Source of the DNA: Mycobacteriales bacterium
Lineage (GTDB): Bacteria > Actinomycetota > Actinomycetes > JAFAQI01
DNA length: 64,000 bases
Direction of reading: 5' to 3'
Assembly (NCBI GenBank): GCA_035550655.1
Contig: DASZOU010000022.1
Span: 31,096-95,095, forward strand
Both the position numbers and the translations under genes were made by a program. Shown piece by piece: positions 28,765 to 57,869 of this stretch; position 1 is the stretch's first letter; each line of letters opens with the position of its first letter. The notes under the pieces are model-generated. The model was not told where the DNA came from and ran no database searches. It saw only the letters and a program-made list of their open reading frames with translations.

Positions 28765-28779
28765 GGGTCAACAGCGCCG

Positions 28780-34110: not shown

Positions 34111-34307
34111 TGGCTCGGGTCGCCCGCAATGTTCAGCGCGTTCGTGAGCAGGTTGCGCAGCGTCGGCTCGGCAACGACCCACAAGGCGACGACGATCCCT
34201 GCCGTCATCATCGTGATCAGCACCCAGCCGGGGACGTCGCCCCGGTCGCGGTCGTTGGCGATCCGGAACCCCAGCGACCGCCACCACGCCTGCACCGAAC
34301 TCCTCAT
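34107..34307 (-). CDS. Small membrane protein in the flp position of the tad locus (putative Flp-like pilin, 66 aa)
   Basis: ATG 34307 is preceded by GGAGG. The product is MRSSVQAWWRSLGFRIANDRDRGDVPGWVLITMMTAGIVVALWVVAEPTL…, with a charged leader and one hydrophobic helix. The canonical G/XXXXEY motif is absent, so it is Flp-like only by position and size. Confidence 0.4.
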   Translation of the reverse strand: MRSSVQAWWRSLGFRIANDRDRGDVPGWVLITMMTAGIVVALWVVAEPTLRNLLTNALNIAGDPSQ

Positions 34308-34335
34308 GACTGCACCCTCCTGTCGAGACGGATCG

Positions 34336-39983: not shown

Positions 39984-39991
39984 AGTCTCGA

Positions 39992-40939: not shown

Positions 40940-42775
40940 GTGTTCCACATGGCCGCCGAGGCCGCGCCCGCCGGCGTGCCAGCCGATGCCGGGACGGCCC
41001 GACTCGGACCGGCGTACTCGCGGCTGCTGACCTACCCGGTGATGACGGCCGGCGCGCTCGCCGACTGCATCGCGTTCGCGATGAGCCGCAGCGGCGACGC
41101 AGGGGCCGCACCGCTGTACTGGCTCGGCCAGATCGCCCTCCTTCTTCCGTGCATCGTCATCTGCCTGCGCCGATCCGCGTCGCCGAAGAGCCGGATATGG
41201 GCACTGCAGCTGTTGGCGGCGCTCCAAAGTTTCGTCGCATGGGCGTACAGCCCGGACCGCTTCCGCTTCCCGGACGAGCTACAACATCTGCGGACGGCCG
41301 ACAACATCCTCGCCACCGGGCATCTGTTCAGCGCGAACCCCGCACTACCCGTCAGTCCGGGGTTCCCGTCGTTGGAGATCGTGACCACCGCCGTGAGCAG
41401 GTTGTCCGGCATGTCGGTGTACACCGCCGGCGTCATCACCTCATCGGTCGCGCACGTCCTGCTCGTGACTGCGGTCGTTTCTTGGGCCCACGCGCTGCGG
41501 CTCGGGTCACGCCAAGCTGCCGCAGCCGCGCTCGTCTTCGGATTCGCCCCCGACTACCCGTACTTCGACACCCTGTTCACCTACACCGCAATCGCGCTGC
41601 CGTTCTTCGTCCTTGCGGCCCGCGCCGCAGTCCGCTCAGTCACGCGACAGGATGCCGCCCTGCTCGTGCTGCCGCCGTTGCTGATCGCTGTCGTCAGCCA
41701 TCACCTCACCGGCTACCTTGCCTGCGGCTATGTCGCGCTCCTCGCCGCAACGTTGGCGATGGGGCGCCGGCCCGAGCCGTCGGCGCCGTGGTGGACGGCC
41801 CCTGGCGTTGCCTTGGTCGGCGTCGCCGGGGTGGGCGTGGTCTGCGCAGCAGCCTGGACAGCGGCCTTCGCCCCGCATGCGCTCGACTACCTGCTGACCC
41901 CGACCAAGGCCGCATTGCACGCAGTGTTCAGCCCGAGCGGATCGGCCGCAGGCGATGTCGCCGCACACGGCGAGGTTGCCCCGCTGTGGCAACGGGCCCT
42001 CGCCATCGCGGGCAGCGTCGTCATGCTGGGGCTGGCGGCGGTCGGCACGGTTCGGTTGTGGCGGTCACCCGTGCCCCGCTGGGTGCAGCTGCTCGCGGGC
42101 GGCGCGATCGCCTACCCCGCCGTCCTCGTCATCCGGGTGGTCGCTGCGGACGGTCCCGAGATCGCGTCTCGGCTCCTGGTCTACGCGATGCTGCTGACCT
42201 GCCTGCCCGTGGCCGCCCTGCTGGTCGCCGTGTGGGCCGACGGCACCTCGCGGGGACGCGTCGTGATCGCCTTGACCCTCGCCGTCACGATCGCGGCGGG
42301 ATCAACGGTGGCCGCGACCCCTTCCCCCTGGGAACGCCTACCCGGGTCGTTCCACGTCGCCGCAGAGGAGAGCGGCGTCGATGCGCGGGTCGCGGCCGCG
42401 GCCCACTACGGAGACCGGACGTTCGCCCCCGGCAGCGTCGTCGCCTGCGACCTGTCGCTGTGCAGCCTCCTCGGCGGCGAGTCCAAGGCGATCACCAGCA
42501 GCGCGTCGGCACCGATGTTCTTCGCCCCGACGGACATCCTGCGCAATGGCGAGATCAGCCGGCTCGGGCTGGACTACGTGCTGGTCGACGACCGGTTGAC
42601 GCAGCAGCTTCCCGCCTTCGGTCTGTACTTCCCCGGCGAGAACAACACAGGCGGATACCCGCGACCTTTCCCACCCGCCCGTCTCGCGTCCTTCGCCACC
42701 GACCCGCTATACAGCCGGGTCTACGACAACGGGGACATCCAGATCTACGACGTGTCCGCGGTGTGGAATGTCTAG
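40940..42775 (+). CDS. Large polytopic membrane protein (611 aa), candidate glycan polymerase/transferase of unknown family
   Basis: More than 12 predicted TM segments and a C-terminal soluble domain. Divergent from licD. Confidence 0.55.
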   Translation: MFHMAAEAAPAGVPADAGTARLGPAYSRLLTYPVMTAGALADCIAFAMSRSGDAGAAPLYWLGQIALLLPCIVICLRRSASPKSRIWALQLLAALQSFVAWAYSPDRFRFPDELQHLRTADNILATGHLFSANPALPVSPGFPSLEIVTTAVSRLSGMSVYTAGVITSSVAHVLLVTAVVSWAHALRLGSRQAAAAALVFGFAPDYPYFDTLFTYTAIALPFFVLAARAAVRSVTRQDAALLVLPPLLIAVVSHHLTGYLACGYVALLAATLAMGRRPEPSAPWWTAPGVALVGVAGVGVVCAAAWTAAFAPHALDYLLTPTKAALHAVFSPSGSAAGDVAAHGEVAPLWQRALAIAGSVVMLGLAAVGTVRLWRSPVPRWVQLLAGGAIAYPAVLVIRVVAADGPEIASRLLVYAMLLTCLPVAALLVAVWADGTSRGRVVIALTLAVTIAAGSTVAATPSPWERLPGSFHVAAEESGVDARVAAAAHYGDRTFAPGSVVACDLSLCSLLGGESKAITSSASAPMFFAPTDILRNGEISRLGLDYVLVDDRLTQQLPAFGLYFPGENNTGGYPRPFPPARLASFATDPLYSRVYDNGDIQIYDVSAVWNV

Positions 42776-43565
42776 CTTCCCGCGCACTCGCTCCGATCTC
42801 GTCGCTCTCGGGCTCCTTGCGCTGGGCGGCGGCGTCGCCGACATCGGGGCAGCCGGGTGGAGCGGGCCCGTACCGGCGGCGGTGGTGCTCGCAACCGCCT
42901 TCCTCGGGCCCGGCCTGGCCTGGCAGAACCTTCGCGGCACCCTCCGCTCCGGCCCGGTCAGCCTCGGCCTCGCCGCTGCCATCAGCACCGGCTGCCTCAT
43001 CACCCTCGGGCTCGGGATGAACGCCGCCTCAGTTGCGCTGAGCCGCAGCCATTGGGCGACGGCGCTCGCCGCGGTCGTCATCGGGTTGGCCGTCGCCGCG
43101 CTGATCCGGCCCCGGCGGATGCTGTTCGATCGCGAGCTTGGGCAAGACGCCGCCGCAACGCCCCGTCGCGTCAGCATTGCCGCGATCTGCGCCTTGTGCG
43201 CGGTGCTGGCCGCGAGCGGCGGGCGGATCGCCTGGTCGAGCCAGCAGCACTGGCTGGCCCGCCAGCACTACACCGAGCTCTACGCCACCGCGACCACGAC
43301 CGGCGAGCTGGTGACGGTCAACAACCATGAAGGCAACCAGGTCAGCTATGTAGCCAGAATCGACGCGGCGGGACAGCCTGCCGCGGTTGTCCGCTTCACC
43401 CTGCCGCAAGGTGGGACGTGGCGGCGCACGGTTGTTGTCCAACCAAGCGAGGTGACAACCGACAGGCCGCTGCTGCAGGTCGAGCTGGCGCGCGACGGTG
43501 TGCCCGGGGTGTACCGCTGGATCAGACTCATCCGACCACAGCCCTCGGCGTCGGCAGCCGGCTGA
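42768..43565 (+). CDS. Membrane protein with C-terminal extracytoplasmic beta-rich domain (unknown function)
   Basis: About 5 TM segments then a ~110-aa soluble domain. Overlaps the upstream gene by 8 nt. Confidence 0.5.
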   Translation: MSSFPRTRSDLVALGLLALGGGVADIGAAGWSGPVPAAVVLATAFLGPGLAWQNLRGTLRSGPVSLGLAAAISTGCLITLGLGMNAASVALSRSHWATALAAVVIGLAVAALIRPRRMLFDRELGQDAAATPRRVSIAAICALCAVLAASGGRIAWSSQQHWLARQHYTELYATATTTGELVTVNNHEGNQVSYVARIDAAGQPAAVVRFTLPQGGTWRRTVVVQPSEVTTDRPLLQVELARDGVPGVYRWIRLIRPQPSASAAG

Positions 43566-43674
43566 GCGCTGGGCCGCGAGACCGCCGCGAAATAGGCTGA
43601 TCACTCGGCGCAAGCCCCGGGATCGGCCCGCCCAGCCCGCGAGCTCGACGGCAAGTACGGAAGGGGTGCCAGGC

Positions 43675-44505
43675 GTGGATCCACTGCCCGGGTTGGCGCC
43701 GGCCGACGTCGACGAAGCCGCGGCGGTCGTCGAACAGCTGTGGTCCGCGACCAGCAGCCGGCTCGCCGTGTTTCGAGTGCCAGTGCTCGCGTTGCGGCAC
43801 CGACGCCTGCTCACGGCCCTCTCGCGGGCTCTCGGGCAGCTTCCGATCCTGCGAGTGCAACCGTCCCGGTCACCGGCGGGTCAGGAGCTCACGGCGTTGC
43901 TGCTCGGTCCGCACTGGCGGGCCGACTCGGGTCGTCGCCTTCCAGAGCTTCGCGTGCGCATCGGCGGCCGGCTGCTGCGGATGCCCGACCGGCGCGCCGC
44001 CGTCGCCGTACTTGAGCTGCCAGCCGATCCCGCGGAATACCTGGCAGGCCGGAAGAAGCAGGCGCTGCGCACCAACCTCGCACACGCTCGCGAACACGGC
44101 ATCACGGTCAGCGAGATCGTGGCTGGGGCCGAACAGCTCGACTGCATCGAACAGGTGCTGGTTGCTCGCGAGGACGAGTGGTGGGCCAAGTACGAGAGCT
44201 GGTTGCGGCGCGTGGTTGACGCGAGACTCGTGCGGCTTTTCGCGGGCCGCGGACCCGACGGCGCGGTTCTGACCGTTGCCCTCGTGGTTCCGGACGCGCC
44301 GTGGGCGATGCTGCGCCTGTTCGTGAGCACACCGGACGACCTCGCCGGTTATGCCAGGTACTCGACCCACGCCTTCATGGTGGAAGCGCTGGCGAAAGCC
44401 GGTGTCCGCACCCTGCTTGTCGACACCGTCTTCGATGCTCCCCCAGGTGTGCGCTACTTCCAGAGCCGGCTGGGCTTCGAGCTGGCAAACATCGCGGTCG
44501 GGTAG
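43675..44505 (+). CDS. FemAB/CelD-like (BioF2-like, GNAT-fold) acyl/aminoacyl-transferase family protein
   Basis: …AEYLAGRKKQALRTNLAHAREHGITVSEIV… is the Acetyltransf_6/CelD-type motif. GTG 43675 is placed 9 nt after a GGAAGGGG Shine-Dalgarno; the start is uncertain. Confidence 0.55.
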   Translation: MDPLPGLAPADVDEAAAVVEQLWSATSSRLAVFRVPVLALRHRRLLTALSRALGQLPILRVQPSRSPAGQELTALLLGPHWRADSGRRLPELRVRIGGRLLRMPDRRAAVAVLELPADPAEYLAGRKKQALRTNLAHAREHGITVSEIVAGAEQLDCIEQVLVAREDEWWAKYESWLRRVVDARLVRLFAGRGPDGAVLTVALVVPDAPWAMLRLFVSTPDDLAGYARYSTHAFMVEALAKAGVRTLLVDTVFDAPPGVRYFQSRLGFELANIAVG

Positions 44506-44512
44506 CGCCGCC

Positions 44513-45625
44513 ATGCAAGCCCGAGTCATCCCGCTGGCGGACCTGAGCCTCGCCGACGAGTCCAAGTGGGCCGCGCTCGCCGAACGAGCCGCCGAGCCCA
44601 ATCCGTACCTCGAGCCGGACTGCGTCCTCCCCGCCTGGCGCCATCTGCCCGAAGCATCGGACCTGCGTTTGGTCGTGGCGGAGCACGCCGACCAGTTCCT
44701 GGCATGCCTTCCCATCGGCTCGCCCCAGCCGTGGAGCCGGCTGCACCGCGCCGCACTGATGGGCCGGGCGGACACGACATCCATATTGCTCAGCACCCCG
44801 TTGGTGGATCCGGCCGGAGGTCTGGATGCCGTAACGGTGTTGCTACAAGGAATCCGCGACCAGGGTCGGGCCCTCGGCGCAGGTTTGCTGGTGTTGGACT
44901 GGCTCGGAGACGACGGGACAGTCGGCCCCCTGCTGCGCGAAGCCGCCGCAGGGCTCCGGATGCCCCGGTCGGAACTGTGGCCGTGGCAGCGGCCAGCAAT
45001 GTTTCGCAAAGCTGACCCCACCGAGTACTGGCTGCGCGAGCTCGGCCATCAGCACCAACGCAAGATCCAGCAGAAGCGCCGTCAGCTGGCCAAGCAGATC
45101 GGACCGCTCGAAGTGGTCGACCGGGCCGGCGACCCTTCGGCCGTCGCGGAGCTCATCCGGCTGGAAGCCACCGGATGGAAGCAGACTTCACCCGAGGGCG
45201 AGGCATTCGCGCGCCGAGAGGCGACGGTGCGGTTCTTCACCGAGCTGTGTGAGCGGTTCGCTGCCTCCGGCCGACTCGTTCTGCTCTCGTTGCAGTCCGC
45301 GGATCGCGCCGCCGCCATGCTGTGTTGCCTGCGGTCCGGAGAAGGACTCTTCGCCTATCGGATCGGCTTCGACGAGGCGCTGGGGCGCGGCAGCCCGGGC
45401 GTGCAGGTCTTCCTCGACGCCATGGCCTACCTGCACCGGGAGACCGACGCGGCGTTTCTGGATTCCTGCACCACACCGGACAACCGCTACCTGCCGGATC
45501 TGTTGCCCGACACCCGCAGCCTGACGACGATGGTGATCGCGATCGGCGGCGCGCTCGATCGGGGCTTCGTCCGGGCCCTCCCTCTGCTCTCAGCCGCGCA
45601 ACGAGCGTCTGGCCGGACGCCGTGA
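44513..45625 (+). CDS. FemAB/CelD-like (BioF2-like, GNAT-fold) acyl/aminoacyl-transferase family protein
   Basis: 370 aa; …YWLRELGHQHQRKIQQKRRQLAKQIGPLEVV… is the same family motif. Paralog of the preceding gene. Confidence 0.65.
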   Translation: MQARVIPLADLSLADESKWAALAERAAEPNPYLEPDCVLPAWRHLPEASDLRLVVAEHADQFLACLPIGSPQPWSRLHRAALMGRADTTSILLSTPLVDPAGGLDAVTVLLQGIRDQGRALGAGLLVLDWLGDDGTVGPLLREAAAGLRMPRSELWPWQRPAMFRKADPTEYWLRELGHQHQRKIQQKRRQLAKQIGPLEVVDRAGDPSAVAELIRLEATGWKQTSPEGEAFARREATVRFFTELCERFAASGRLVLLSLQSADRAAAMLCCLRSGEGLFAYRIGFDEALGRGSPGVQVFLDAMAYLHRETDAAFLDSCTTPDNRYLPDLLPDTRSLTTMVIAIGGALDRGFVRALPLLSAAQRASGRTP

Positions 45626-46935
45626 CGGCCCGGCGATCGATTCGAGTGCCGCAGGCACTGACCCGAGAACGCGCCGCGAGCCTCGCGGCCAGCCCGGTCA
45701 TTCGCGGCACCGCCTTCCTCTACGGCAGCACGATCACCACGAGTGTTCTCGGTTTCTTCTTCTGGTTCGTCGCCGCCCGACTGCTGACGCCGGAAGAAGT
45801 CGGCGCCGGATCAGCGGCCCAGTCGGCCGCTCAGCTCTGCGCGACGATCGGCATCCTCGGCCTCGGCACGCTCACCATCGCGGAGCTCGCGACGGATCGA
45901 AGCAAGGTCCGCCAGCTCGTGTCGGCCACGTGTCTCGTCGCAGCGATCGCGTCCACTGCGGCCGGCGTGGTGACAGGCGTCGTGCTCACTCACACGAGCC
46001 GTCATCTCGACGCCGTCGTCGGCGGCTGGCTGCCGTTGACCACTTTCGCGCTGCTCGCCGGTACGACCGCCGCCGGTCTGGTTCTCGACGATGCCTGCAT
46101 CGGCCTCCTGCGCGGCGAGATCCAACTCGTGCGCAACGCCGTGTTCGCGGCGGCGAAGCTCGCCTTGCTACCGGTGGCGATCTATGCCGGTGGATTCGGC
46201 CACGGCCGCCAGATCATTGTGGTCTGGCTGCTCGCCAGCGCGGGCTCGCTGGTCGTCGCGTACGGCCTGATCCGACGACGAACCGAGCCCGCGACGTGGC
46301 GGCCAGACCTGTCCAACCTGATCGCAAAGCGCCGGTTGATCTGGAGCCACCACCTGCTCAACGTCGCCGTCCTGGCTCCCGGGCTCGCCGCTCCGGTCGT
46401 CGTGACGACCCTCGTGGGACCCAGCGCAAACGCGGGCTTCTACACCGCGCTGCTCGTCACCAACTTCGTGAACATCATCCCGAGCCAGCTGGCGACCACG
46501 TTCTTCGCGCTCGCCCCGGGCGACGAAGCGGCGCTCGCACGCGAGATCCGCATCACGCTTCGGGTCTCGGTCGCCGTCTCGGTGGCGGCCGCGGTGCTGT
46601 TCGGGTTCGGCTCACACCTGATTCTTCACGTGTTCCGGCGAAGCTACGTGTCCGCTGCGCCCGCGATGGCGCTGCTCGGATTCGCCACTTTTCCCTACGC
46701 GATCAAGTCGCACTTCGTGGGCATCACCAGAGTTCAGGGCCGAATGCAGCGAGGGGCGGCGTTTGCAGCGCTCGCTGCGATCATCGAGATCGTTGGCGCG
46801 GTCATCGGGACAAGCCTCGACAACGTGACCGGCGCGGCCGCCGGACTGCTGACCGCACTCGTCTTCGAGTCGCTGCTGTTCGGTCCGACGGTGCTGTCCG
46901 CGCTCCGCGGACAGCAGCCATCAGCGTCGACGTGA
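45622..46935 (+). CDS. Polysaccharide biosynthesis protein / MOP-superfamily flippase (Wzx-like)
   Basis: 437 aa, ~14 TM with a duplicated architecture. GTGA coupling to the upstream gene. Confidence 0.75.
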   Translation: MTARRSIRVPQALTRERAASLAASPVIRGTAFLYGSTITTSVLGFFFWFVAARLLTPEEVGAGSAAQSAAQLCATIGILGLGTLTIAELATDRSKVRQLVSATCLVAAIASTAAGVVTGVVLTHTSRHLDAVVGGWLPLTTFALLAGTTAAGLVLDDACIGLLRGEIQLVRNAVFAAAKLALLPVAIYAGGFGHGRQIIVVWLLASAGSLVVAYGLIRRRTEPATWRPDLSNLIAKRRLIWSHHLLNVAVLAPGLAAPVVVTTLVGPSANAGFYTALLVTNFVNIIPSQLATTFFALAPGDEAALAREIRITLRVSVAVSVAAAVLFGFGSHLILHVFRRSYVSAAPAMALLGFATFPYAIKSHFVGITRVQGRMQRGAAFAALAAIIEIVGAVIGTSLDNVTGAAAGLLTALVFESLLFGPTVLSALRGQQPSAST

Positions 46936-47904
46936 GGACACGCGCCGGAGCGCCGCGGCGCCACGGGTGAGCGCGCGCCGGAGCCTTGCCGGCAGCATCA
47001 CGGACGCCAGGAAGAACACCCAAGCGCGCCAGCCCGCTGATCGCTCGGCAAGCACGCTTCGTGCGATGCGCCCGGCGCCGCGCCAGTCCCGCTGGGCTAC
47101 CGCGAGAACGCCGGTGACGCACAGCAGACCGTCGCCGTGTTCCCGCGGCGTCAGACCAGCGCGCTGCCCCTCGAACCAGTCGCGACTGAGCCGCCAACCC
47201 GCCCGCGACGAGGCGGAGTCGCCCGCGGCAGCGACGGTGTAGTCAAGCAGCACCTGGTCCAGCATGAGGACCGCAGTGGACGGATCGGCGGCGAGAAGCA
47301 GCAAGGTCTCCCAGTCCTCGTGCAGATGCGTCGCGCTGGTCGCCCTTGCCCGCTGCGCAGCGTCTCGGCTGAGCAGCATCATCGACGCCGCGACGGTTGT
47401 CTCCCCGGGTCGAATCTCCCGACGGACAAACAGGTAGTCGGCAAGCCGTTCACCGGGCCGAAGCACGCGGCGTGGCACGGTCTGGATGAACCGGCCGTCG
47501 GAATCGACCAGGTTCATCCGGCACAGCACCACGACGTTGCCGGCCAGCTCGGCCTTCGCCGCCTCCGCGGCCGCGACCTGGCGACGGATCTTCTCCGGAT
47601 GCCACCTGTCGTCGTCGTCGAGAAAAGCGATGTAGTCGGCGCCCGCGGCCGCATCGATCGCAGCCGCCCGAGCCGCCCGTGGACCTCGGCGTCGATCCGA
47701 CTCGATGATCCGCAGCCGCGGCTCGTCGGGCAACGCGGCGGCGAGCTCACCCGGTGCGGGGCCGTCCACGCTGACCACGACCGCGACGTCGCGATAGGTC
47801 TGCTGCAAGGCGCTTTGCACCGCCCTCACGACATGGGGCGCGCCAAGGGTGGGCACCACGACGACGACCCGCGGTCCGGTCCGGGAACCGTCACTCGAGG
47901 CCAT
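46921..47904 (-). CDS. Family 2 glycosyltransferase
   Basis: GT-A motifs VVVVPTLGAPHVVRAVQSALQQTYRDVAVVVSVDGP and IAFLDDDDRWHPEK (DxD). Start at ATG 47904. Confidence 0.8.
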   Translation of the reverse strand: MASSDGSRTGPRVVVVVPTLGAPHVVRAVQSALQQTYRDVAVVVSVDGPAPGELAAALPDEPRLRIIESDRRRGPRAARAAAIDAAAGADYIAFLDDDDRWHPEKIRRQVAAAEAAKAELAGNVVVLCRMNLVDSDGRFIQTVPRRVLRPGERLADYLFVRREIRPGETTVAASMMLLSRDAAQRARATSATHLHEDWETLLLLAADPSTAVLMLDQVLLDYTVAAAGDSASSRAGWRLSRDWFEGQRAGLTPREHGDGLLCVTGVLAVAQRDWRGAGRIARSVLAERSAGWRAWVFFLASVMLPARLRRALTRGAAALRRVSSRRR

Positions 47905-48143
47905 CCATCCGCCGTTCACAGAGAGTCGGATCTGAGGTGACGCTATCGGCCTTCGATCCGCCCGCGTCCTCGACCGGGCGAGCCTCGTTAGGACAAGACG
48001 AACCCCCACGGTTCATCGCCTGCCGTCACAAGGCAAGCAAGTCCGCCGTTTCCGGCGAACGGCTTGGTTGTCCGCAGACGTCGGGCGGCGGACCACCCGT
48101 CCGGCGGATCACCAACTCGGGACAAGGGATCGAGACAGTCATC

Positions 48144-49289: not shown

Positions 49290-49293
49290 CGGT

Positions 49294-50310: not shown

Positions 50311-51319
50311 GGGACCGCTCCTCCGGCACCGGTACGTCGTCCCCAGCTGCCGGAGCAGCCTTCGCGGCCGGGCTATGGAGAGCGGCATGAACGGCGCCGG
50401 CGAGCGCGGCAAAGCAGCCGGCCAAGACGGCGGCGAAACGCAGCACCGCGGCGAAATCGCCGCTGACAACCTGCCAGAGGCATCGGCCGAGTGCGGTGGG
50501 CACGGTACGGAGGGCATAGGCCCGCTCGGAGCTCAGCCGCTCATGCGTCAGCCGTCGCATCTCGATCTTGCCGCGCCCCTCGCTGAAGCAACGAGCGAGG
50601 AAGAAACGGAAGCTGGACCGGCCGGTCGGCACGAAGTGCTCGACCCGGGCATCCGGCACGTAGAGCCAGTGATCGCCGGACCGCCGGGCGAACCGGATGC
50701 ACATCTCGGTGTCCTCAGGGCGCGAGACGTCGAGGCGCTTGCCGAACCCTTCGTCGAACCCGCCGCAGGCCAGGAACTGGGCGCGGCGGATCGCCATGTT
50801 CTCGCTCCAGACGTTGCGGACCTCGGCCTGGGAGGTCGGCATGCCTTTGAAGCTGGCGCCCACCACCCACAGGAACTCGTCGGGGAACCACCGCGGCTTG
50901 CCCGTCTGCCACCGCGGGCTGGCACTCCCGCCGGTGCCGGCGACCGACGGCTCGCCCAGAGGCGCGATCAGCCGGCGCAGCCAGCTAGGGGCTGCAACCA
51001 CGTCGTCGTCGAGGAACGCCACGAGGGGGCTGCGGGCAGCACGAACTCCGGCGTTGCGCGTCGACGATGCGCCTCGCACACCCGTGTTGGCGACCACCTT
51101 GACGCGCGGATGCACCCGGTACAGCGTGCGCAGCTTCAGATAGAGGGGGTCGTTGTTGTCGACCGCGATGACCACCTCGAGGGGTGTCACATCCTGCGCG
51201 AGCGCGGAGGTCACACTGCGCTGGAGCAAGTCCAGCCGGTTCTCGCTGTGGCAGGCGATGACGACGGACACGCCACCGGTGAGCACGTCGCTGGGAGAGA
51301 GCGGCTGCCGGCGGTTCAC
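50300..51319 (-). CDS. Family 2 glycosyltransferase
   Basis: VSVVIACHSENRLDLLQRSVTSALAQD…VIAVDNN…FLDDDV (DxD) GT-A core. Confidence 0.8.
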   Translation of the reverse strand: MNRRQPLSPSDVLTGGVSVVIACHSENRLDLLQRSVTSALAQDVTPLEVVIAVDNNDPLYLKLRTLYRVHPRVKVVANTGVRGASSTRNAGVRAARSPLVAFLDDDVVAAPSWLRRLIAPLGEPSVAGTGGSASPRWQTGKPRWFPDEFLWVVGASFKGMPTSQAEVRNVWSENMAIRRAQFLACGGFDEGFGKRLDVSRPEDTEMCIRFARRSGDHWLYVPDARVEHFVPTGRSSFRFFLARCFSEGRGKIEMRRLTHERLSSERAYALRTVPTALGRCLWQVVSGDFAAVLRFAAVLAGCFAALAGAVHAALHSPAAKAAPAAGDDVPVPEERSRAG

Positions 51320-52218
51320 GACGCCACGCTTTGTTCGGTCACAGCGGCCGCGGCGAGGTCGCTCGAGGAAGTGCGCTGCGTCGGTAGGACAACCGGGCGG
51401 TGGAGTCGCGCCGGCGCCTCAGCGCGGTATTCGCGCATGATGGTGCGAAGCACGCGCCAGCCGTCCTTGATCGTGTTGAGGTTGGTCTCTCCGTACAGCC
51501 GCCGGCTCTCGACGCTCGGCACCTCGGCGATGCGTGCGCCCGCTCGGGCGATCCGGACGTTCATCAGCGTCTCGATCTCGAAGCCGTCCCCCCAGACCGC
51601 TTCTCCGGCTTCGCCCACGCTGAGGCCGAACGCCGGCAGGCAGCTCGCCCAGAACGCGTTATAGCCGTAGCAGAGGTCGGTGAAGCCACTTCCGAACAAC
51701 ACGTTGACCAGGCGGTTGAGGGCGCGGTTGCCCAGGCGACGGATCGGCGTGATGTCGTGCGAGCAGCCGCCGACGGCGAAGCGCGAGCCCTTCGCGAAGT
51801 CCGCGCCGGCCAGCAGCGACGCCACGAACTCCGGGATCTCGGCGGGGTCAGTCGAGCCGTCCGCATCCAGCATCACGATGATCTCGCCGGTGCAAGCGGC
51901 GAAGCCGCATGCGAGGGCGTTTCCCTTTCCGCGGCGGTTCTGGTGGATGACCTTGACATCCGGTCGTAGCCGCCGTGCCACCTCGACAGTGTCGTCGACC
52001 GAGTGGCCATCGACGAGGATGACCTCGTAGACATCGTTCGGGATCCGCGCGAAGACGTGCTCGAGGTTGCGCGCCTCGTTCATCGCCGGGATGACGACAC
52101 TCACGGTCGGCATCCGGAAGCTCGTCTCGAGCTCGACGATCTCGGCGAGACCGGCACGCTCGGCCGATCCGGCGAGCTGGGCGGTTTCGGTGGCTGCTGC
52201 ACCGGTGCGGGTCGCCAT
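51316..52218 (-). CDS. Family 2 glycosyltransferase, polyprenol-phosphate sugar synthase-like (DPM1/GtrB/Ppm1-type)
   Basis: MPTVSVVIPAMNEARNLEHV…VILVDGHSVDDT…GKGNALACGF…VMLDADGSTDP is the canonical GtrB/DPM1 motif set. ATGA overlap with the downstream GT2. Confidence 0.8.
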   Translation of the reverse strand: MATRTGAAATETAQLAGSAERAGLAEIVELETSFRMPTVSVVIPAMNEARNLEHVFARIPNDVYEVILVDGHSVDDTVEVARRLRPDVKVIHQNRRGKGNALACGFAACTGEIIVMLDADGSTDPAEIPEFVASLLAGADFAKGSRFAVGGCSHDITPIRRLGNRALNRLVNVLFGSGFTDLCYGYNAFWASCLPAFGLSVGEAGEAVWGDGFEIETLMNVRIARAGARIAEVPSVESRRLYGETNLNTIKDGWRVLRTIMREYRAEAPARLHRPVVLPTQRTSSSDLAAAAVTEQSVAS

Positions 52219-52448
52219 CGTTGGCCCATCCTTCGTAGTGACAGGTCGGGCCGGTTTCGCCATTGCTCCCCGCCGGGCTATGGCGACCAGTTCGTCGCCC
52301 GGTGGTTCATCGCTCCCAATTGCGACGCTAGGCACGAGGACTGGCGAATACCACGGGACAAGCGCCCGACTCGATGACCCGAATGCGGGGCGAAAAAACC
52401 ACCCGTCGTAGCTATTGCGCCGACGTCAGACACGCGGCTAACGGCAAG

Positions 52449-53705
52449 ATGGTGCGGGTGAGCAGCGTGCTGAAGCGCATCGATCTCACCGCCCTGCGCG
52501 CTCCCGCGAAAGTGGTCGATGTATCACTCGACGAGACGCCGGCCGGTGCCGCGCGAGTCGTCGACACGGCCGGCTACGAGTCGCTCTGGTGCCTGCTGCG
52601 CTCGGGCGGGGTACCCGTCGGCATCACGCTCTGGGACGTTTCCGGAGACGACGAGGTGAGCGTCGACGTCATCCGAGCGGCCACCCGAACCGAGTTCGAC
52701 CGTCACGATGCCGCCCCCGATCCGCAACCCGTGCCCGGCCTCGACCTCACCGTCGCGCTGTGCACCCGCGAACGCCCGGATGACCTGCGGGCTGCGCTGG
52801 ACAGCCTGAGCCAGCAGACCGACTCCGCGTTCTCCGTCGTAGTCGTCGACAACGCGCCCGCCAGCACGTCGACTCGGGAGGTCGTCGAGGCGGCAGGCGG
52901 CACGAACACGCGCTACGTCGTCGAGCCTGCGCCGGGCCTGTCTCGAGCCCGCAACACCGCGCTCGCCGCCGTCGAGACTCCGCTCGTCGCCTGGATGGAT
53001 GACGACGAGACCGCCGATCCGCAGTGGATAGAACGGGTCAAACAGGGCTTCGGCCACTCGTCCCGACCGGCTGCGGTGTGCGGACTGATGCTGCCCGCCG
53101 AGCTCGAGACGGAGGCGCAGGTCCGCTTCGAACAGTACGGCGGGTTCAACAAGGGCCGCGGCCTCGTCCCCGAGGTCCTCTCGCTCGCCGCGGGAACGGT
53201 ACGCAGCCCGATGTACCCGCTGCCCAACTTCGGCGCCGGCGGCAACATGGCGTTCCGGGTCGAGGCGTTGCGCGCCGCCGGTGGCTTCGACCCCTGCCTC
53301 GGCGCCGGAACCAGCACCCACGGCGGCGAGGAGACCCGAGCGCTCGCGCTGGTCCTCCGGGCGGGCGGCACGGTGCTGCACTGGCCCGCCGCCATCACGT
53401 GGCACTACCACCGGCGTGAGCTCGACGCGCTGCGCAACCAGTTCCGCGGCTACAGCGCCGGGCTGTCAGCCTTCTTCGCGAGCATGTGGTTGACCGCTCC
53501 CTCGGCGAGCAGCCGCGAGTTGTTGCACGTCGTTCCCACCGCCCTTGGCCACGTCCGACCCGGCGCCGGGAACCGGCGCGTCGGTGGCCTCCCCGACGAC
53601 TTCCCCAAGGACCTGCTCCGGGCCGGGCGCGCCGGATTCCTCGAGGGCGGCGTTGCGTACCTCCGCGAGCGTCGCCGCCACCGCGCGGCTTCCGGCGCGG
53701 GTTAG
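52449..53705 (+). CDS. Family 2 glycosyltransferase with N-terminal extension
   Basis: LTVALCTRERPDDLRAALDSLSQQTDSAFSVVVVDNAP and WMDDDETADPQW (DxD). Start taken at ATG 52449. Confidence 0.7.
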   Translation: MVRVSSVLKRIDLTALRAPAKVVDVSLDETPAGAARVVDTAGYESLWCLLRSGGVPVGITLWDVSGDDEVSVDVIRAATRTEFDRHDAAPDPQPVPGLDLTVALCTRERPDDLRAALDSLSQQTDSAFSVVVVDNAPASTSTREVVEAAGGTNTRYVVEPAPGLSRARNTALAAVETPLVAWMDDDETADPQWIERVKQGFGHSSRPAAVCGLMLPAELETEAQVRFEQYGGFNKGRGLVPEVLSLAAGTVRSPMYPLPNFGAGGNMAFRVEALRAAGGFDPCLGAGTSTHGGEETRALALVLRAGGTVLHWPAAITWHYHRRELDALRNQFRGYSAGLSAFFASMWLTAPSASSRELLHVVPTALGHVRPGAGNRRVGGLPDDFPKDLLRAGRAGFLEGGVAYLRERRRHRAASGAG

Positions 53706-53714
53706 GCAAACCGG

Positions 53715-54725
53715 ATGCAGCTGCGCACCCTGGCGGGAACGACCGTCACCACCTCTGCCCTTGGACTGGGGTGCGCCGGGCTGTATCGACTTCCCCGGCG
53801 CGACCACCGGGAGGCCGTCCTCGCCGCGGCGGTGGCGGCGGATGTTCGCCATTTCGACACGGCTCCGATGTACGGATTGGGCCGGGCCGAAGCCGAGCTT
53901 GCTCCGTTGCTCCGGTCGCGCCGCGACGAGTTGACCGTCACGACGAAGTTCGGCATCGAGCCGTCAGCGATCGGCGCCATGATCGGGCGGGTTCAAGGTC
54001 CGGTGCGGTCGCTGCTCGCCCGGCGTTCCGGGCTTCAGCAAAGCGTGGGCCGCTCCGGCGCCGGACCGGCAAGCGGTGCCGTTGGCCGCTTGCTGTACAG
54101 CGCGGCGGGGTACGACGCGGGCACCGCAGCGCGCAGCCTGACGCGCAGCCTGCGAGCCCTGCGGTCGGACTACATCGACATCTTCGCCCTGCACGATCCG
54201 ATGGGCACCGCGGTGACGAACGCCCCTGAGCTCATCGGTTACCTCGAGGACCAGGTTCGAGCCGGGACGATCCGGTGCTGGGGGATCGCGGGCGAGCTGC
54301 CCCCGACCGGATCGCCGGGCCGCCGGTTGCTCGAGGGCGCGCCACTCGTCCAGCAGCCCGACGACGTGTTCGAGCCGGCGGAGTCGGTCTCGCCGGACCG
54401 GGCCACGATCACCTTCGGTTGCCTGTCACGAGCCCTGCCCGCGTTGCTCGCGCATGTCACGGCCACGCCCGGCACGCGCGCCCGATGGAGCGAGCGACTG
54501 GGCGTGGACGCCGCCGACCCGCAGGCGATGGCGGGGCTGCTGCTCAGAGCGGCGATTCGCCGCAATCCCTCGGGAGTCGTGCTGTTCTCGACGACGCGGC
54601 CCGAGCGAGTTGGCGCCGCGGTCGAATCCGTCGCAAGGCCCGAAGACCCTGCCGTGGCGAGCGCATTGCATGCCATTGTCCAGGAGGTCGCACTACTGCC
54701 CGAACACCGCGAAAGGCCCGAATGA
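53715..54725 (+). CDS. Aldo/keto reductase
   Basis: 336 aa; LGLGCAGL…FDTAPMYG…TKFG AKR catalytic-tetrad context. Confidence 0.85.
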   Translation: MQLRTLAGTTVTTSALGLGCAGLYRLPRRDHREAVLAAAVAADVRHFDTAPMYGLGRAEAELAPLLRSRRDELTVTTKFGIEPSAIGAMIGRVQGPVRSLLARRSGLQQSVGRSGAGPASGAVGRLLYSAAGYDAGTAARSLTRSLRALRSDYIDIFALHDPMGTAVTNAPELIGYLEDQVRAGTIRCWGIAGELPPTGSPGRRLLEGAPLVQQPDDVFEPAESVSPDRATITFGCLSRALPALLAHVTATPGTRARWSERLGVDAADPQAMAGLLLRAAIRRNPSGVVLFSTTRPERVGAAVESVARPEDPAVASALHAIVQEVALLPEHRERPE

Positions 54726-56419
54726 TCGACGATCTCGCTGCGCTCGGCACCGACGCGCGCTTTGCCGCGGACCTGGCTGTCGTCGGCGCCGGACCAGCCG
54801 GCATCGTGGTTGCCCTCGAGGCCGCCCGGCGGGGGCTCGACGTCGTACTGCTCGAAAGCGGACGCGAGCACTACGACGAAGCGGTCCAGGAGCTGTCCGA
54901 GGCGGCCGAATGGGATCGGTCCCGCCACGCCCCGATGTCGATGGCGATCCGGCGGCAGGTCGGGGGCACGTCGGTCACCTGGGGCGGCCGATGCGTGCCG
55001 TTCGACCCGGTCGACTTCACCACGCGAGCCGTCGCGGGCTCGGCACGGTGGCCGGTGAGCTACGAAGAGATACGGGAGTACTTCGGCCGGGCCTGCGACT
55101 GGATGCAGTGCGGCAGACCCGTGTTCAACGTCGCCGACATTCCTTCCCTCGCCGGCGATTTGGTCCCCGGTCTCACCGACCGCGACGGTGTGAAGTCGAC
55201 GGATCTCGAACGATGGTCGCTCCCGACCAACTTCGGCCAGGTGTATCGAAAGCAGCTCCACGACCTGCCGAACCTGCGACTGCTTGCGGGGGTGACCTGC
55301 ATCACCGTCGAGTGCCCGCCGGAACGCCGGCAGGTCGACGCAATCGAGTGCCGCACCACCGCGGGCGGGCGGGTGCGAGTCGAGGCGCGGGCCTTCGTGA
55401 TCGCCGCCGGTGGCCTTGAGAGCACTCGGCTGCTGATGAGCTCGCCAGGACCACAAGGCGGCGAGCTGGGAAACCACTCCGGACATCTGGGCCGCTGGTA
55501 CATGGCGCACGTGGAAGGCGTGGCAGCAAAGGTCCAGTTCACCACCGCGCCGCGCGCGACGAAGTACGACTACGAACGTGACATCGACGGCAGCTACGTC
55601 CGCCGCCGGTTCACGCTGACCGAGGAGCTCCAGCTGCGCGAAGGAGTCCCTAACTTCGCCGCGTGGATCACCAATCCGGACCTCGCGGACGCCTCGCACG
55701 ACCGCGGCGAGCTCTCCTTCGCCTATCTCGCTCTCGTCTCACCGGTCGGCAAGCGGTTCGCACCTGACGCCCAGCGGTTGTCGTTGACCGGCGTAGTCGT
55801 GCCGGGCGCACCGTACGGCCACACGGAGATATCTCCGGTGGGCGAGCACCTGCGCAACCTGGCGCGGCATCCCGTGACCACCGGACGGTTCGCCTTCGGA
55901 TTCGGTACCCGCCGATTTCTCCAGCGCGGTCGCCGCGCCCCCGGCTTCTTCTCCTACAGCCCCAACAACCGCTACCCGCTGCAGTACCACGCCGAGCACC
56001 TGCCGCAGGCCGACAGCCAGGTGTCGCTCACCCGCGAGCGCGACGCGCTCGGCCGGCCGAAGCTGGCCATCGACCTAAGGTTCGCGTCGGCCGACGTCGA
56101 GGGCGTGGTCCGGGCTCATGCGCTGCTCGATCGAGCCTTGCGAGACTGCGGCGTGGGGCGGCTCGAGTACGTATCGACTGACCTTCCGGCGGCGATCGAA
56201 GAACGACTTGGCGGCGGCTTCCACCAGTCCGGGACCACGCGAATGGCAGCGACGGAGAACGACGGCGTGGTCAACCGCGACCTCCGGGTGTACGGCGTCG
56301 ACAATCTCTACGTTGCGAGCAGCTCCACGTTCGTCACATCGGGTCAGGCCAACTCGACCTTCATGATCGTCGCCTTCGCCGTGCGCCTCGCCGAGCACCT
56401 GGGCCGCCGGCTCAGCTAG
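54722..56419 (+). CDS. GMC-family FAD-dependent oxidoreductase
   Basis: FAD motif DLAVVGAGPAGIVVALEAARRG, GMC signature regions, and a C-terminal His/Asn active-site region (…HQSGTTRMAA…). ATGA overlap with the AKR. Confidence 0.85.
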   Translation: MIDDLAALGTDARFAADLAVVGAGPAGIVVALEAARRGLDVVLLESGREHYDEAVQELSEAAEWDRSRHAPMSMAIRRQVGGTSVTWGGRCVPFDPVDFTTRAVAGSARWPVSYEEIREYFGRACDWMQCGRPVFNVADIPSLAGDLVPGLTDRDGVKSTDLERWSLPTNFGQVYRKQLHDLPNLRLLAGVTCITVECPPERRQVDAIECRTTAGGRVRVEARAFVIAAGGLESTRLLMSSPGPQGGELGNHSGHLGRWYMAHVEGVAAKVQFTTAPRATKYDYERDIDGSYVRRRFTLTEELQLREGVPNFAAWITNPDLADASHDRGELSFAYLALVSPVGKRFAPDAQRLSLTGVVVPGAPYGHTEISPVGEHLRNLARHPVTTGRFAFGFGTRRFLQRGRRAPGFFSYSPNNRYPLQYHAEHLPQADSQVSLTRERDALGRPKLAIDLRFASADVEGVVRAHALLDRALRDCGVGRLEYVSTDLPAAIEERLGGGFHQSGTTRMAATENDGVVNRDLRVYGVDNLYVASSSTFVTSGQANSTFMIVAFAVRLAEHLGRRLS

Positions 56420-56491
56420 CCCCAAGAATCGACCGACAAGCCGGACGATCCGGGCAAGTCGGTCGCCGCTGCCACCCATCCGGCTCATTAC

Positions 56492-56511
56492 CGAAACGCG
56501 ATCACGTTTCG
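56492..56511. promoter_or_regulatory. Palindrome CGAAACG-CGATCA-CGTTTCG 12-31 nt upstream of the third GH26-like gene
   Basis: Perfect 7-bp arms read directly. Its position overlaps the expected promoter/RBS region, so it is a candidate operator. Confidence 0.3.
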
Positions 56512-56522
56512 AGACACTGAGT

Positions 56523-57869
56523 ATGAGACGTGTCGCGGCCTTCATCGCCAGCCTCGTCGTCTCGTGCCTGATCATCGCAATCGGGGTCGGACGCGGGGCG
56601 CCGTCAGCGGCAGTCGCGAGCACGACCAGCCCGTTCACGGCGTACATCGATGTCGGCGACAACACCGGACTTGCGGCGCTCGGGCAGCGCATCGGCACCC
56701 CAATCAGCTACGCCTATGACTACTTCGACGACCGCTCGTGGGCGAACATCGACGACACGTGGAACATGAACAACTGGGCCGGTACCGGCTATCGCATGAT
56801 CTGGGGCGTACCGATGCTGCCGCTGTCGGGCGCGACGCTTTCAATCGGTGCGACCGGCGCGTACGACCAGTACTACGTGACTGTCGCGAAAGACCTCGTC
56901 GCGCACGGTATGGGCAACTCGATCCTGCGGCTCGGCTGGGAGTTCAACCAGAAGTCCTACCCGTGGTACGCCGCCGGGCAGGCCCCGGCGTTCGTCGCCT
57001 ACTGGCGACACATCGTGACCGCGATGCGCTCGGTGTCGGGGGCAGCCTTCACCTTCGAGTGGAACCCATCGCTCGGCGACAACGGCGGCGGCGATGCAGC
57101 GATGGGCAACTTCACGAGCTACTACCCGGGCGACGCGTACGTCGATGTCGTCGCGCTCGACGTGTACGACATCGCGTGGAACAACTACCCCGGCGAGCCG
57201 GCGCAGTTCTCCAGCTTCGAGACGAGGACGTGGGGCCTCAACTGGCTCGCGTCGTTCGCCTCGCAGCACGCGAAGTCGCTCGCGATCGCCGAGTTCGGCC
57301 TCGGCTGGGGCGGCTCTGCCGGCAACGGCCAGCCGTACTCGGGGTCCGGCACCGTCTGCGGTGGCGACAACCCACGGTTCGTCCACGACATGGCCGCATG
57401 GATGAAGCAGCACAACGCCGTCACCAGCGGCTACTGGGACAACTCCTTCTCCTCCATCGACAACGGTCAGAACCCGTTGACGGCCAGCGAGATCGCGGCC
57501 GACTTCGGTAGCGGCGCGACGCTCACACCGTCGACGTCTCCCACTCAGACGTCGACCGCCCCGACGACCACGAAGCACAAGCGGAGCCACCTGCGCCAGG
57601 CCGGGCTGACCCTCGGCCGCGTCGTTGCCTCGGCGAACGGCATCACGCTCAGCGGCCGCTTGGTCCCGGCACACTCCGGCATCAAGGTGCGCGTGGAGAC
57701 GGCGCAGTCGGCTCACGCGGCGCGTTGGGCGTCACGCGGACAGGCGGCCACCTCCGCCAACGGCCGCTTCCACACCGTCGTCGCGAACCCAGCCCATGCG
57801 CGATACGTCCGGGTCGTCGCGAAGGTCGGCCGGCACACCCGCTCCTCGCACCCCGTCATGGTCGGCTAG
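56523..57869 (+). CDS. Secreted GH26-like glycoside hydrolase (paralog of 48144-49289) with extra C-terminal domain
   Basis: Signal peptide, same catalytic regions (LRLGWEFNQKSYPWY, AIAEFG), then a ~110-aa C-terminal extension after the PT linker. Confidence 0.75.
   Translation: MRRVAAFIASLVVSCLIIAIGVGRGAPSAAVASTTSPFTAYIDVGDNTGLAALGQRIGTPISYAYDYFDDRSWANIDDTWNMNNWAGTGYRMIWGVPMLPLSGATLSIGATGAYDQYYVTVAKDLVAHGMGNSILRLGWEFNQKSYPWYAAGQAPAFVAYWRHIVTAMRSVSGAAFTFEWNPSLGDNGGGDAAMGNFTSYYPGDAYVDVVALDVYDIAWNNYPGEPAQFSSFETRTWGLNWLASFASQHAKSLAIAEFGLGWGGSAGNGQPYSGSGTVCGGDNPRFVHDMAAWMKQHNAVTSGYWDNSFSSIDNGQNPLTASEIAADFGSGATLTPSTSPTQTSTAPTTTKHKRSHLRQAGLTLGRVVASANGITLSGRLVPAHSGIKVRVETAQSAHAARWASRGQAATSANGRFHTVVANPAHARYVRVVAKVGRHTRSSHPVMVG

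Follow-up and report, generated by a model that had tools for sequence, protein, structure and literature searches.

A candidate surface-glycan assembly locus with an undescribed GT-C-type protein family, GH26-like hydrolases and a c-di-GMP-class riboswitch in an uncultured soil actinobacterium

Glycosyltransferases of the GT-C class use polyprenyl-phosphate-linked donors. The N-glycosylation pathway of Haloferax volcanii includes AglJ, AglG, AglR and AglB, the exopolysaccharide (EPS) loci for Psl, cellulose and Pel carry an embedded hydrolase (PslG, BcsZ and PelA, respectively), and DprE1 and DprE2 together carry out the two-enzyme epimerisation of decaprenyl-phosphoryl-ribose. A 2026 paper reported a GH26 gene, wpsE, in the Wzx/Wzy cluster wps-1 of Actinoplanes missouriensis, and its authors noted that no Wzx/Wzy cluster with a GH26 gene had been characterised (PMC13390465). 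Here, we analysed a locus of about 17 kb (positions 40940-57869) within a stretch of 64,000 nucleotides (nt) of contig DASZOU010000022.1, hereafter the window, which comes from the metagenome-assembled genome (MAG) of an uncultured soil actinobacterium and has a GC content of 69%. The original prediction on this DNA had described a cluster for the biosynthesis of an envelope glycan, and gene families, folds and conserved co-occurrence all upheld this description. We propose, with a probability of roughly 0.55, that the locus assembles a surface or matrix glycan through polyprenyl-phosphate-linked intermediates under the control of a cyclic dinucleotide.

Because high-GC DNA is rich in spurious open reading frames (ORFs), genes were called from several lines of evidence, namely codon-position GC, Pfam and NCBIfam searches, and comparison with annotated relatives. 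The contents of the cluster as first described, and their positions, were correct, while the number of genes fell from 16 to 14 on codon-position GC and family assignment; the surplus ORFs, such as 48806-49276(-), are antisense artefacts of high-GC DNA. Moreover, the true starts of the GMC, flippase, GT2c, H1, H2 and LicD genes lie downstream of the maximal-ORF start. The 14 genes are arranged as five transcription units, listed here together with an RNA element (amino acids, aa; transmembrane, TM).

Unit 1, plus strand, Mem611 - Mem265 - X335 - GNAT424 - flippase:
40949-42775, plus: Mem611, polytopic membrane protein of 608 aa (611 in the original prediction)
42768-43565, plus: Mem265, small membrane protein with about 4-5 TM segments (hydropathy) and a C-terminal beta-rich domain
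43666-44505, plus: X335, FemX/MprF-C-like protein (DUF2156-type GNAT fold); start uncertain, maximal ORF from 43498
44513-45625, plus: GNAT424, FemAB/CelD-like acyl or aminoacyl transferase; PF13480 73.8 bits, E 2e-20; maximal ORF from 44351
45622-46935, plus: flippase of the multidrug/oligosaccharidyl-lipid/polysaccharide (MOP) superfamily, Wzx/AglR-like, 437 aa, about 12 hydrophobic segments
Unit 2, minus strand, GT2a alone:
46921-47904, minus: GT2a, glycosyltransferase; PF00535 67 bits
Unit 3, plus strand, H1 alone:
48144-49289, plus: H1, GH26-like hydrolase, secreted; signal-like N-terminus and Pro/Thr-rich tail; PF02156 20.2 bits, exactly at the cut-off
Unit 4, minus strand, GT2c - GT2b - H2:
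52241-52325, minus: c-di-GMP-II-GAG aptamer (RF03169, clan CL00127); Rfam 42.6 bits, gathering threshold 40
51316-52218, minus: GT2c, polyprenyl-phosphate hexose synthase-like; PF00535 96 bits
50300-51319, minus: GT2b, AglG-like; PF00535 76 bits
49294-50310, minus: H2, N-terminally anchored GH26-like hydrolase, last in the riboswitch-led operon; PF02156 38.5 bits
Unit 5, plus strand, GT2d - AKR - GMC - H3:
52374-53705, plus: GT2d, first gene of GT2d-AKR-GMC; PF00535 64 bits
53715-54725, plus: aldo-keto reductase (AKR); PF00248 70 bits; candidate catalytic D, Y, K and H in the sequence
54722-56419, plus: FAD oxidoreductase of the glucose-methanol-choline (GMC) family, sugar-oxidising type, cytoplasmic; PF05199 74.6 bits
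56523-57869, plus: H3, GH26-like hydrolase, secreted, carrying a further domain of about 100 aa at its C-terminus; PF02156 19.7 bits, just under the cut-off; matches to solved GH26 structures

Overlaps of 4 to 11 nt, read from the sequence, link Mem611/Mem265, GT2c/GT2b, GT2b/H2 and AKR/GMC, indicating tight operons.

We compared this gene set with that of other genomes, whose loci are given here by our own numbers. Three close relatives from the Mycobacteriales (L083, L085 and L086; 65-80% identity) carry a compact version of the cluster in the order Tad ATPase, Mem611-Mem265, H2-GT2b-GT2c, flippase-GT2d-AKR-GMC and pyruvyl transferase; both L083 and L085/L086 have the complete core. No X335, GNAT424 or second copy of an H1/H3-type hydrolase was found in these three loci, nor was GT2a detected there; GT2a and X335 reappear in more distant versions of the cluster. 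L083 has one H3-type hydrolase, at the end of the cluster, matching the position of H3 in the window. The pyruvyl transferase gene (PF04230) follows GMC at 1365-2621 in L083 and 21053-21803 in L085, and the window has none; the decoration of the glycan probably differs between relatives, with pyruvate there and GNAT, FemX-like and LicD-type groups here. Further away, an Acidimicrobiales MAG (L030) has counterparts of Mem611, GT2b, GT2c, GT2d, AKR and GMC as well as two hydrolases, all 30-60% identical, with flippase and Mem265 undetected. The distant Mem611 homologues in L084, L087, L088 and L089 all have a GT2d-like or GT2b-like gene just upstream of the GT-C gene; GH26-like genes accompany three of these four, L088 has a GH5 gene as well, and L087 additionally carries GT2a, GT2b, GT2c, GT2d, a fragment of the flippase and an X335 homologue. 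Overall, seven of eight independent Mem611-family contexts have a GH26-like gene no more than 10 kb away. Similarly, in all three distant GMC loci that were sampled, one of them from a Dormiibacterota MAG, no more than 9 kb separates GT2d-AKR-GMC from GH26-like genes, with GT2c present in two of the three and a flippase in one. As a combination, GT2b, GT2c, GT2d, AKR, GMC and GH26-like genes are shared with Mycobacteriales, Acidimicrobiales and Dormiibacterota MAGs at 50-80% identity.

The probable key enzyme of the cluster is Mem611. It had no match in Pfam or NCBIfam even at E<=10 and no match by sequence to a solved structure. A word-seeded search of 5.8 billion proteins, which possibly missed remoter members, found 26 homologues, all from MAGs or unbinned metagenome contigs, and the two most distant of these matched PMT_2. 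The AlphaFold2 (AF2) model built from 26 sequences (pLDDT 85, pTM 0.85) shows the multi-TM core fold common to STT3, PMT, ArnT and Aft enzymes (GT-C). Two methods gave STT3 and AglB as the nearest folds, the AglB-type C-terminal globular domain included, and the top ten Foldseek matches were STT3 chains. In the 26 sequences the pair D109-E110 is invariant within an F-x-D-E-[LFM] motif (FPDELQH in the window protein), which the helix map of the model places in the first large extracytoplasmic loop; this DE loop motif is as in PMT/ArnT-type enzymes. Further invariant residues are H251-H252, E404/R408 and a C-terminal D-x-R...P..G.Y motif. As for the WWDYG motif, there is no WWD in Mem611, and the position in question reads W-E-R-L-P-G and is unconserved in distant members. 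From the modelled fold and these residues, Mem611 appears to be a GT-C glycosyltransferase of an undescribed family, with a C-terminal extracytoplasmic domain and a fold like that of an oligosaccharyltransferase (OST). We did not file it as a true OST (GT66), having found neither WWDYG nor a sequence match to STT3 despite the fold. A literature search on new GT-C families returned nothing matching, and one on OST-like GT-C enzymes in Actinobacteria returned the known Pmt and AftD work. The adjoining gene, Mem265, directly follows the GT-C gene in L083, L084, L085 and L086 as well, and the 8-nt overlap of the two genes in the window suggests translational coupling. Mem265 matches DUF1616 (PF07760) at E 0.02 and its L084 counterpart at 9e-5, both under the cut-off, and neither NCBIfam nor a sequence search against solved structures gave a match for it; the literature on DUF1616 was uninformative.

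As had been predicted, the cluster encodes four GT-A glycosyltransferases, each with a PF00535 match (64-96 bits) and a DxD motif, and one of them, GT2c, is of the polyprenol-phosphate-sugar synthase type. The closest solved relatives of GT2c are the Dol-P-Man synthase of P. furiosus (5mlz, 1e-18), followed by ArnC and GtrB; among NCBIfam models, it scored 129 bits with AglJ (cut-off 325) and 63 bits with a Dol-P-hexose transferase model. Pfam and NCBIfam searches detected no Bac_transf/WecA phosphoglycosyltransferase, Wzy or Wzz among the cluster genes, and the GT-C protein is the one large membrane enzyme encoded there. Given the type of GT2c and the lack of a phosphoglycosyltransferase in the cluster, GT2c is probably the initiating enzyme, priming polyprenyl monophosphate. 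GT2b matched the NCBIfam AglG model with 191 bits (E 2e-56), under the cut-off of 440; it probably acts second among the transferases, extending the lipid-linked sugar. In two independent assemblies, the GT2c and GT2b orthologues form a single two-domain protein of 633 aa (L085, 13605-15506, minus strand; L086, 6742-8643, minus strand). Orthologues of GT2d (40-69% identity) were found in L030, L083-L085, L088 and L090-L092, and homologues of GT2a in the distant versions L084, L087, L088 and L090, with none detected in the close Mycobacteriales relatives.

We then consider the three hydrolases, all of which have hydrophobic N-termini. H1 and H3 share 79% protein and 83% DNA identity, and H2 is 37% identical to both; by sequence, H1 is a duplicate of H3. 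H2, which is identical to an NCBI entry labelled 'glycosyl hydrolase', by itself reaches solved GH26 enzymes at 1e-8. A profile of 22 family sequences matched GH26 structures only, at 1e-13 to 1e-15 and over the whole CtLic26A domain. In this alignment the catalytic Glu pair coincides, GWE[FM]N with RPxHE(x)NG and lpEw/AEFG with the IIAEFA of Lic26A and the mannanases, and E156 and E268 are invariant across the 22 sequences. Together with the PF02156 scores, these matches confirm the predicted three GH26-like hydrolases and place them in GH26 by family profile rather than in unrelated families. By homology, H1-H3 are probably retaining GH26 enzymes cutting beta-linked glycans. The idea that they are dedicated partners of the biosynthetic genes gained support from the 11-nt overlap of H2 with GT2b in one operon, and from GH26-like genes beside the same GT2, AKR, GMC and GT-C genes in distant lineages. 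Across the genome collection, 524 loci encode relatives of this GH26-like subfamily, often several per genome. In 80 genome loci, its members repeatedly stand near genes for GT4, GT2, BY-kinase, PMT_2-type GT-C, Bac_transf and Wzy_C, indicating that the subfamily is generally embedded in polysaccharide loci.

The cyclic di-GMP (c-di-GMP)-clan aptamer at 52241-52325(-) was overlooked in the original prediction. At its 3′ end, the aptamer is 6 nt away from the Shine-Dalgarno sequence GAAGGA and 23 nt from the GT2c ATG at 52218, so that by position it sits in the 5′ untranslated region (UTR) of the GT2c-GT2b-H2 operon, whose expression we infer it gates. With scores that reach Rfam gathering, RF03169 also precedes GT2c in L083 and the distant L087, and the corresponding element in L085 and L086 was found solely with a model (R1) built from the window, L083 and L087. 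When RNAalifold was run on an alignment (A5) of these same three sequences, 5 of the 19 predicted pairs showed compensatory changes. Scanning the region between GT2c and GT2d for promoter and terminator consensus sequences gave no match. Moreover, in nine unrelated Actinomycetota loci a GH26-like gene is immediately preceded, on the same strand, by a c-di-GMP-I (RF01051) or c-di-GMP-I-GGC (RF03167) aptamer, as follows.

L006, L010, L012, L048, L051 and L071, about 9670-9980, plus: aptamer upstream of a GH26-like gene
L069, 8944-9019, plus: aptamer upstream of a GH26-like gene
L087, 13961-14035: aptamer upstream of a GH26-like gene
L091, 17217-17291: aptamer upstream of a GH26-like gene

By score, the hydrolases behind these aptamers are mostly of the H2 type. 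In the literature we found neither this association of c-di-GMP-I classes, the GGC variant especially, with GH26 genes nor an established ligand for the GAG (RF03169) or GGC (RF03167) variants. Two c-di-GMP-clan aptamer classes thus converge on the GT2c operon, which includes H2, and on H2-type hydrolase genes, which argues for a surface or matrix glycan regulated by a second messenger. This evidence narrows the wall or exopolysaccharide product first proposed to a matrix or surface glycan under regulation.

The predicted AKR and GMC oxidoreductase were both recovered by their family matches, and their genes overlap by 4 nt. The GMC sequence carries GAGPAG (the FAD GxGxxG motif) and, in its C-terminal domain, GGFHQSGTTRM with the active-site His, and has no signal peptide; among solved structures it comes closest to FAD-glucose dehydrogenase (2e-22), fructose dehydrogenase and pyranose 2-oxidase. 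More than 1400 GMC homologues were found, the top 120 at least 60% identical over at least 96% of the query; orthologues with 60% identity or more amount to hundreds at least, in Actinomycetota and Dormiibacterota MAGs. AKR orthologues with 46-65% identity adjoin GMC in L030, L083, L085 and L090-L092. By analogy, GMC and AKR plausibly form a pair that oxidises and re-reduces a sugar. We found no literature on a combined GMC, AKR, glycosyltransferase and flippase system. A link to mycofactocin through MftF and MftG was rejected, with 42-97 bits against cut-offs of 280-387; mftA-E were not searched for. Beside the GT2d-AKR-GMC genes of L092 lies a gene (11110-12915, plus strand) for a secreted-looking protein of 601 aa without a Pfam match, which is built of two types of repeat of about 40 aa, 'SC.S...C.AVG' and 'GYWLVA.DGGIF.FG'. 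We rejected it as an analogue of Mem611, since it is a repeat protein with no hydrophobic segments and an hhalign probability of 0.1%.

The Wzx-like flippase of the original prediction corresponds to the MOP (Polysacc_synt-like) protein of unit 1, orthologues of which occur in L083, L085, L091, L015 and L084. The two genes preceding it had been described as paralogous FemAB/CelD-like transferases. Their membership of the GNAT/FemX superfamily holds for both, while close mutual paralogy was rejected (BLAST E 0.023, hhalign probability 0.6%). X335 belongs to a family with 387 representative homologues and itself has no family match at E<=0.01; among 39 homologues, four match LPG_synthase_C (PF09924) and three match Acetyltransf_6 (PF13480). 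The AF2 model of X335 (pLDDT 91) gave MprF, FemX, Sbb17 and L/F-transferase as the top Foldseek matches (E about 1e-7, probability 1.0, TMq 0.42-0.49), and on this modelled fold X335 is probably an aminoacyl-tRNA-dependent transferase. Inside the Mem611-containing cluster of L084, one protein (12726-14846, plus strand) joins a MOP flippase and an X335-like domain (hhalign 98.8%), and a homologue of 765 aa (P0386) shows a second such fusion. GNAT424 scored 74 bits with the NCBIfam BspF-like model, far under its cut-off, and a sequence search found no solved homologue. The suggestion that the polymer is decorated with aminoacyl or acyl groups is accordingly plausible, with the FemX/MprF-like fold of X335 and its fusion to a flippase in L084 speaking for it.

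Based on the gene content, folds, fusions, operons, co-occurrence and aptamers described above, and with every catalytic step taken from homology, we propose the following sequence of events. The c-di-GMP-II-class riboswitch would gate GT2c, GT2b and H2. GT2c would place a hexose on polyprenyl monophosphate at the cytoplasmic face, and the lipid-linked sugar would be extended by GT2b, with GT2d and GT2a. The cytoplasmic GMC and AKR might modify a sugar by way of a keto intermediate, with net epimerisation or keto/deoxy chemistry as the outcome, and X335 and GNAT424 could attach aminoacyl or acyl groups. The lipid-linked glycan would then be exported by the MOP flippase, and Mem611 with Mem265 would hand it to an extracytoplasmic acceptor or a growing chain. 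Finally, the anchored H2 and the secreted H1 and H3 may trim, release or remodel the product, and in this genome only a LicD module, described below, may add a phospho-amino-alcohol.

Several observations weigh against this proposal. All NCBIfam scores in the cluster are far under the equivalog cut-offs, and the flippase reached 23.9 bits with PF01943, under the cut-off of 28.2, its orthologues also giving weak hits. Hydropathy predicted no C-terminal TM segment in GT2c, unlike GtrB and the archaeal Dol-P-Man synthase, so that with its sub-equivalog scores and no anchoring helices GT2c is to be read as a putative polyprenyl-phosphate sugar synthase. The RF03169 match is just 2.6 bits over the gathering threshold, and the aptamer was not found in L030, L090 or L092; to our knowledge, RF03169 is a variant class without an established ligand. 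Likewise, we know of no characterised member of the Mem611 GT-C family, of this GMC subfamily or of this GH26 subfamily. The idea of an epimerase pair is one of analogy only, and the donor could be a mono- or a diphosphate and carry a single sugar or an oligosaccharide.

These points leave room for other explanations. It could be that GT2c makes a single polyprenyl-phosphate sugar, the flippase carries it across and Mem611 adds it to a polymer made elsewhere, in a three-component side-chain glycosylation, and that the other GT2s serve a separate cytoplasmic product. A synthase of the GT2c type with a GT-C fold is indeed the architecture of CsbB/GtcA/YfhO and PpgS/Rv3779, and the cluster has no priming phosphoglycosyltransferase; nevertheless we consider this explanation unlikely, because the flippase is of the 12-TM MOP type and not GtrA, the GT2c-GT2b fusion in L085 argues for extension before export, and three or four GT2s plus dedicated glycanases accompany the GT-C gene. 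The similarity of Mem611 to STT3 and AglB, down to the AglB-type C-terminal domain, raises OST-like protein glycosylation, in which Mem611 would move an oligosaccharide from polyprenyl monophosphate en bloc to secreted or surface proteins, such as Tad pilins or the Pro/Thr-rich hydrolases. The AglJ-like (129 bits) and AglG-like (191 bits) scores, the MOP flippase and the tad locus adjoining the cluster in the window, L083 and L085 would fit such a role. The adjacency to tad is limited to close relatives, however, and Mem611 has no WWDYG and no STT3 Pfam match, its DE loop is as in PMT/ArnT and its distant homologues match PMT_2, while partners of the endo-glycanase type and c-di-GMP control fit a polysaccharide better; on balance, protein glycosylation seems improbable. 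We have equally low expectations of a full bacterial counterpart of the archaeal Agl pathway, with AglJ/AglG-like GT2s assembling an oligosaccharide on polyprenyl monophosphate, epimerisation of a lipid-linked sugar by GMC and AKR, en bloc transfer to proteins or a different surface acceptor by a hitherto unrecognised STT3/AglB-like GT-C family, and a variant c-di-GMP-II switch for the entire pathway. If it were true, the ligand of the orphan riboswitch could be inferred from its gene association.

The locus might instead be a classical Wzx/Wzy exopolysaccharide locus, with its primer, polymerase and chain-length regulator encoded elsewhere and Mem611 unrelated to it. Elsewhere Bac_transf, Wzy_C and BY-kinase genes do accompany the GH26-like subfamily in Wzx/Wzy clusters, and wpsE of the A. 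missouriensis wps-1 cluster is a case of a GH26 gene in this setting (PMC13390465). Those three genes are absent from the clusters of the window, L083, L085 and L030, however, and Mem611 is syntenic with GT2s across orders, which makes us doubt this explanation strongly. Catabolism or chance association, with GH26, GMC and AKR degrading and oxidising external plant beta-mannan or glucan, is the most improbable account of all. Mannanases, xylanases and lichenases make up most of the characterised GH26 enzymes, and GMC and AKR enzymes are known from sugar catabolism, yet the locus lacks genes for a sugar transporter, a regulator and downstream catabolism, the H2 gene runs into GT2b, the cytoplasmic GMC and AKR stand behind GT2d, the gene combination recurs across phyla, and c-di-GMP riboswitches precede both GT2c and GH26 genes.

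Next to the cluster lies a divergent LicD module, which is composed as follows (pyridoxal phosphate, PLP; S-adenosylmethionine, SAM).

37459-40798, minus: LicD module, an operon of three genes
39992-40798, minus: LicD; PF04991 81 bits
38163-39983, minus: nucleotidyltransferase fused to a CobD-like PLP enzyme; NTP_transf_3 and Aminotran_1_2; TIGR01140 197 bits
37459-38166, minus: SAM methyltransferase, overlapping the stop of the fusion gene by 4 nt

The CobD-like half is of the Ser/Thr-phosphate decarboxylase type (TIGR01140), and among solved structures the methyltransferase gave only generic class-I matches, including phosphoethanolamine N-methyltransferase (E 5e-4). The module has neither a choline kinase nor a transporter. 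From these similarities, it may produce a CDP-activated phospho-amino-alcohol de novo, such as phosphoethanolamine, its N-methylated forms or aminopropanol phosphate. Module and cluster had been taken for a single system, and synteny argues against this: L083, L085 and L086 have no LicD module, and their Tad ATPase gene directly adjoins the GT-C gene. We therefore regard the module as an accessory of this genome, with its absence from these three relatives as the sole evidence. The idea that its composition betrays horizontal transfer was dropped, since its third-position GC (GC3) of 0.83-0.87 is like that of its neighbours.

The other surroundings are ordinary. Housekeeping genes (tmRNA, smpB, ftsEX and prfB) and a Tad pilus locus lie upstream of the cluster, and nucleosidase and helicase genes lie downstream. 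The Tad/Flp locus (32742-37432, minus strand), with TadE/G-like, T2SSF and CpaF-type ATPase genes, stands immediately beside the cluster; the same adjacency is seen in L083, L085 and L086 and not in distant relatives, and may represent inherited gene order. Further features are listed below.

21172-21263: tRNA-Asp, in ordinary housekeeping surroundings
24877-25236, minus: tmRNA with the tag peptide ADNNRLALAA, near smpB
25071-26579, plus: ArsP-type permease ORF which, as called, overlaps the tmRNA on the opposite strand; its start is probably later
26820-28280, plus: protein with DUF222 and HNH endonuclease domains, between the permease and smpB
28288-28767, minus: smpB

If the polyprenyl-phosphate route to a surface or matrix glycan that we favour is true, the locus represents an uncharacterised route to a surface or biofilm glycan, apparently common in soil bacteria (Actinomycetota and Dormiibacterota MAGs), in which a polyprenyl-monophosphate primer and an OST-like GT-C would replace the usual phosphoglycosyltransferase/Wzy machinery, an unexplained sugar-tailoring pair of flavoenzyme and reductase would take part, and GH26-type glycanases would be carried along. 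The orphan riboswitch variants gain a concrete gene context in genes for an initiating transferase and glycanases. GH26, usually seen as degrading plant polysaccharides, probably serves here to process a glycan made by the bacterium itself.

Compared with described systems, the locus resembles CsbB/GtrB-type GT2 plus flippase plus YfhO, and PpgS/Rv3779, in having a synthase-type GT2, a flippase and an external GT-C. It differs from CsbB/YfhO and PpgS/Rv3779 in its MOP rather than GtrA flippase, its three further GT2s (one fused to the synthase in a relative), its GMC/AKR and GNAT tailoring enzymes, its GH26 glycanases and its undescribed GT-C with an AglB-like C-terminal domain. With the archaeal Agl pathway it shares AglJ and AglG as best models, a MOP flippase, an STT3/AglB fold and an implied monophosphate carrier; in contrast, its scores are under the equivalog cut-offs, there is no WWDYG or STT3 match, the host is bacterial, and glycanases and redox enzymes are added. 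Like the EPS loci with an embedded hydrolase, it has glycosyltransferases and a flippase beside a hydrolase presumed to act on the locus's own product, whereas here Wzy, Wzz and a priming transferase are missing and the hydrolase is present in three copies. The control of biofilm, adhesion and matrix genes by c-di-GMP riboswitches finds a parallel in the c-di-GMP-II-clan aptamer in the 5′ UTR of the putative initiating glycosyltransferase and in GEMM-I on GH26 homologues, while the best models here are the variant families RF03169 (GAG) and RF03167 (GGC). Similarity to DprE1/DprE2 would be one of logic only, in that a flavoenzyme oxidises a sugar hydroxyl and re-reduction falls to a second enzyme, an NAD(P)H reductase, next to polyprenyl-phosphate-sugar enzymes; those are a vanillyl-alcohol oxidase (VAO)-type flavoprotein and a short-chain dehydrogenase/reductase (SDR), and here a GMC and an AKR, so that this is analogy and not homology. 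X335 has a fold like FemX and like MprF, a fusion of a flippase and an aminoacyl-tRNA-dependent transferase, and X335-like domains are fused to a MOP flippase in L084 and in the 765-aa homologue. In contrast to MprF, however, the sequence similarity is marginal (4 of 39 homologues reach LPG_synthase_C), the flippase belongs to a superfamily other than that of the MprF N-domain, and the acceptor is presumably a lipid-linked glycan rather than phosphatidylglycerol. Taken together, the locus is not categorically new: it is a locus for lipid-linked glycan assembly with an undescribed GT-C family inside, set apart from known systems by the combination of a monophosphate-type primer, a MOP flippase and an OST-like GT-C with a GT2-AKR-GMC triad, multiple GH26 genes and c-di-GMP-class riboswitches.

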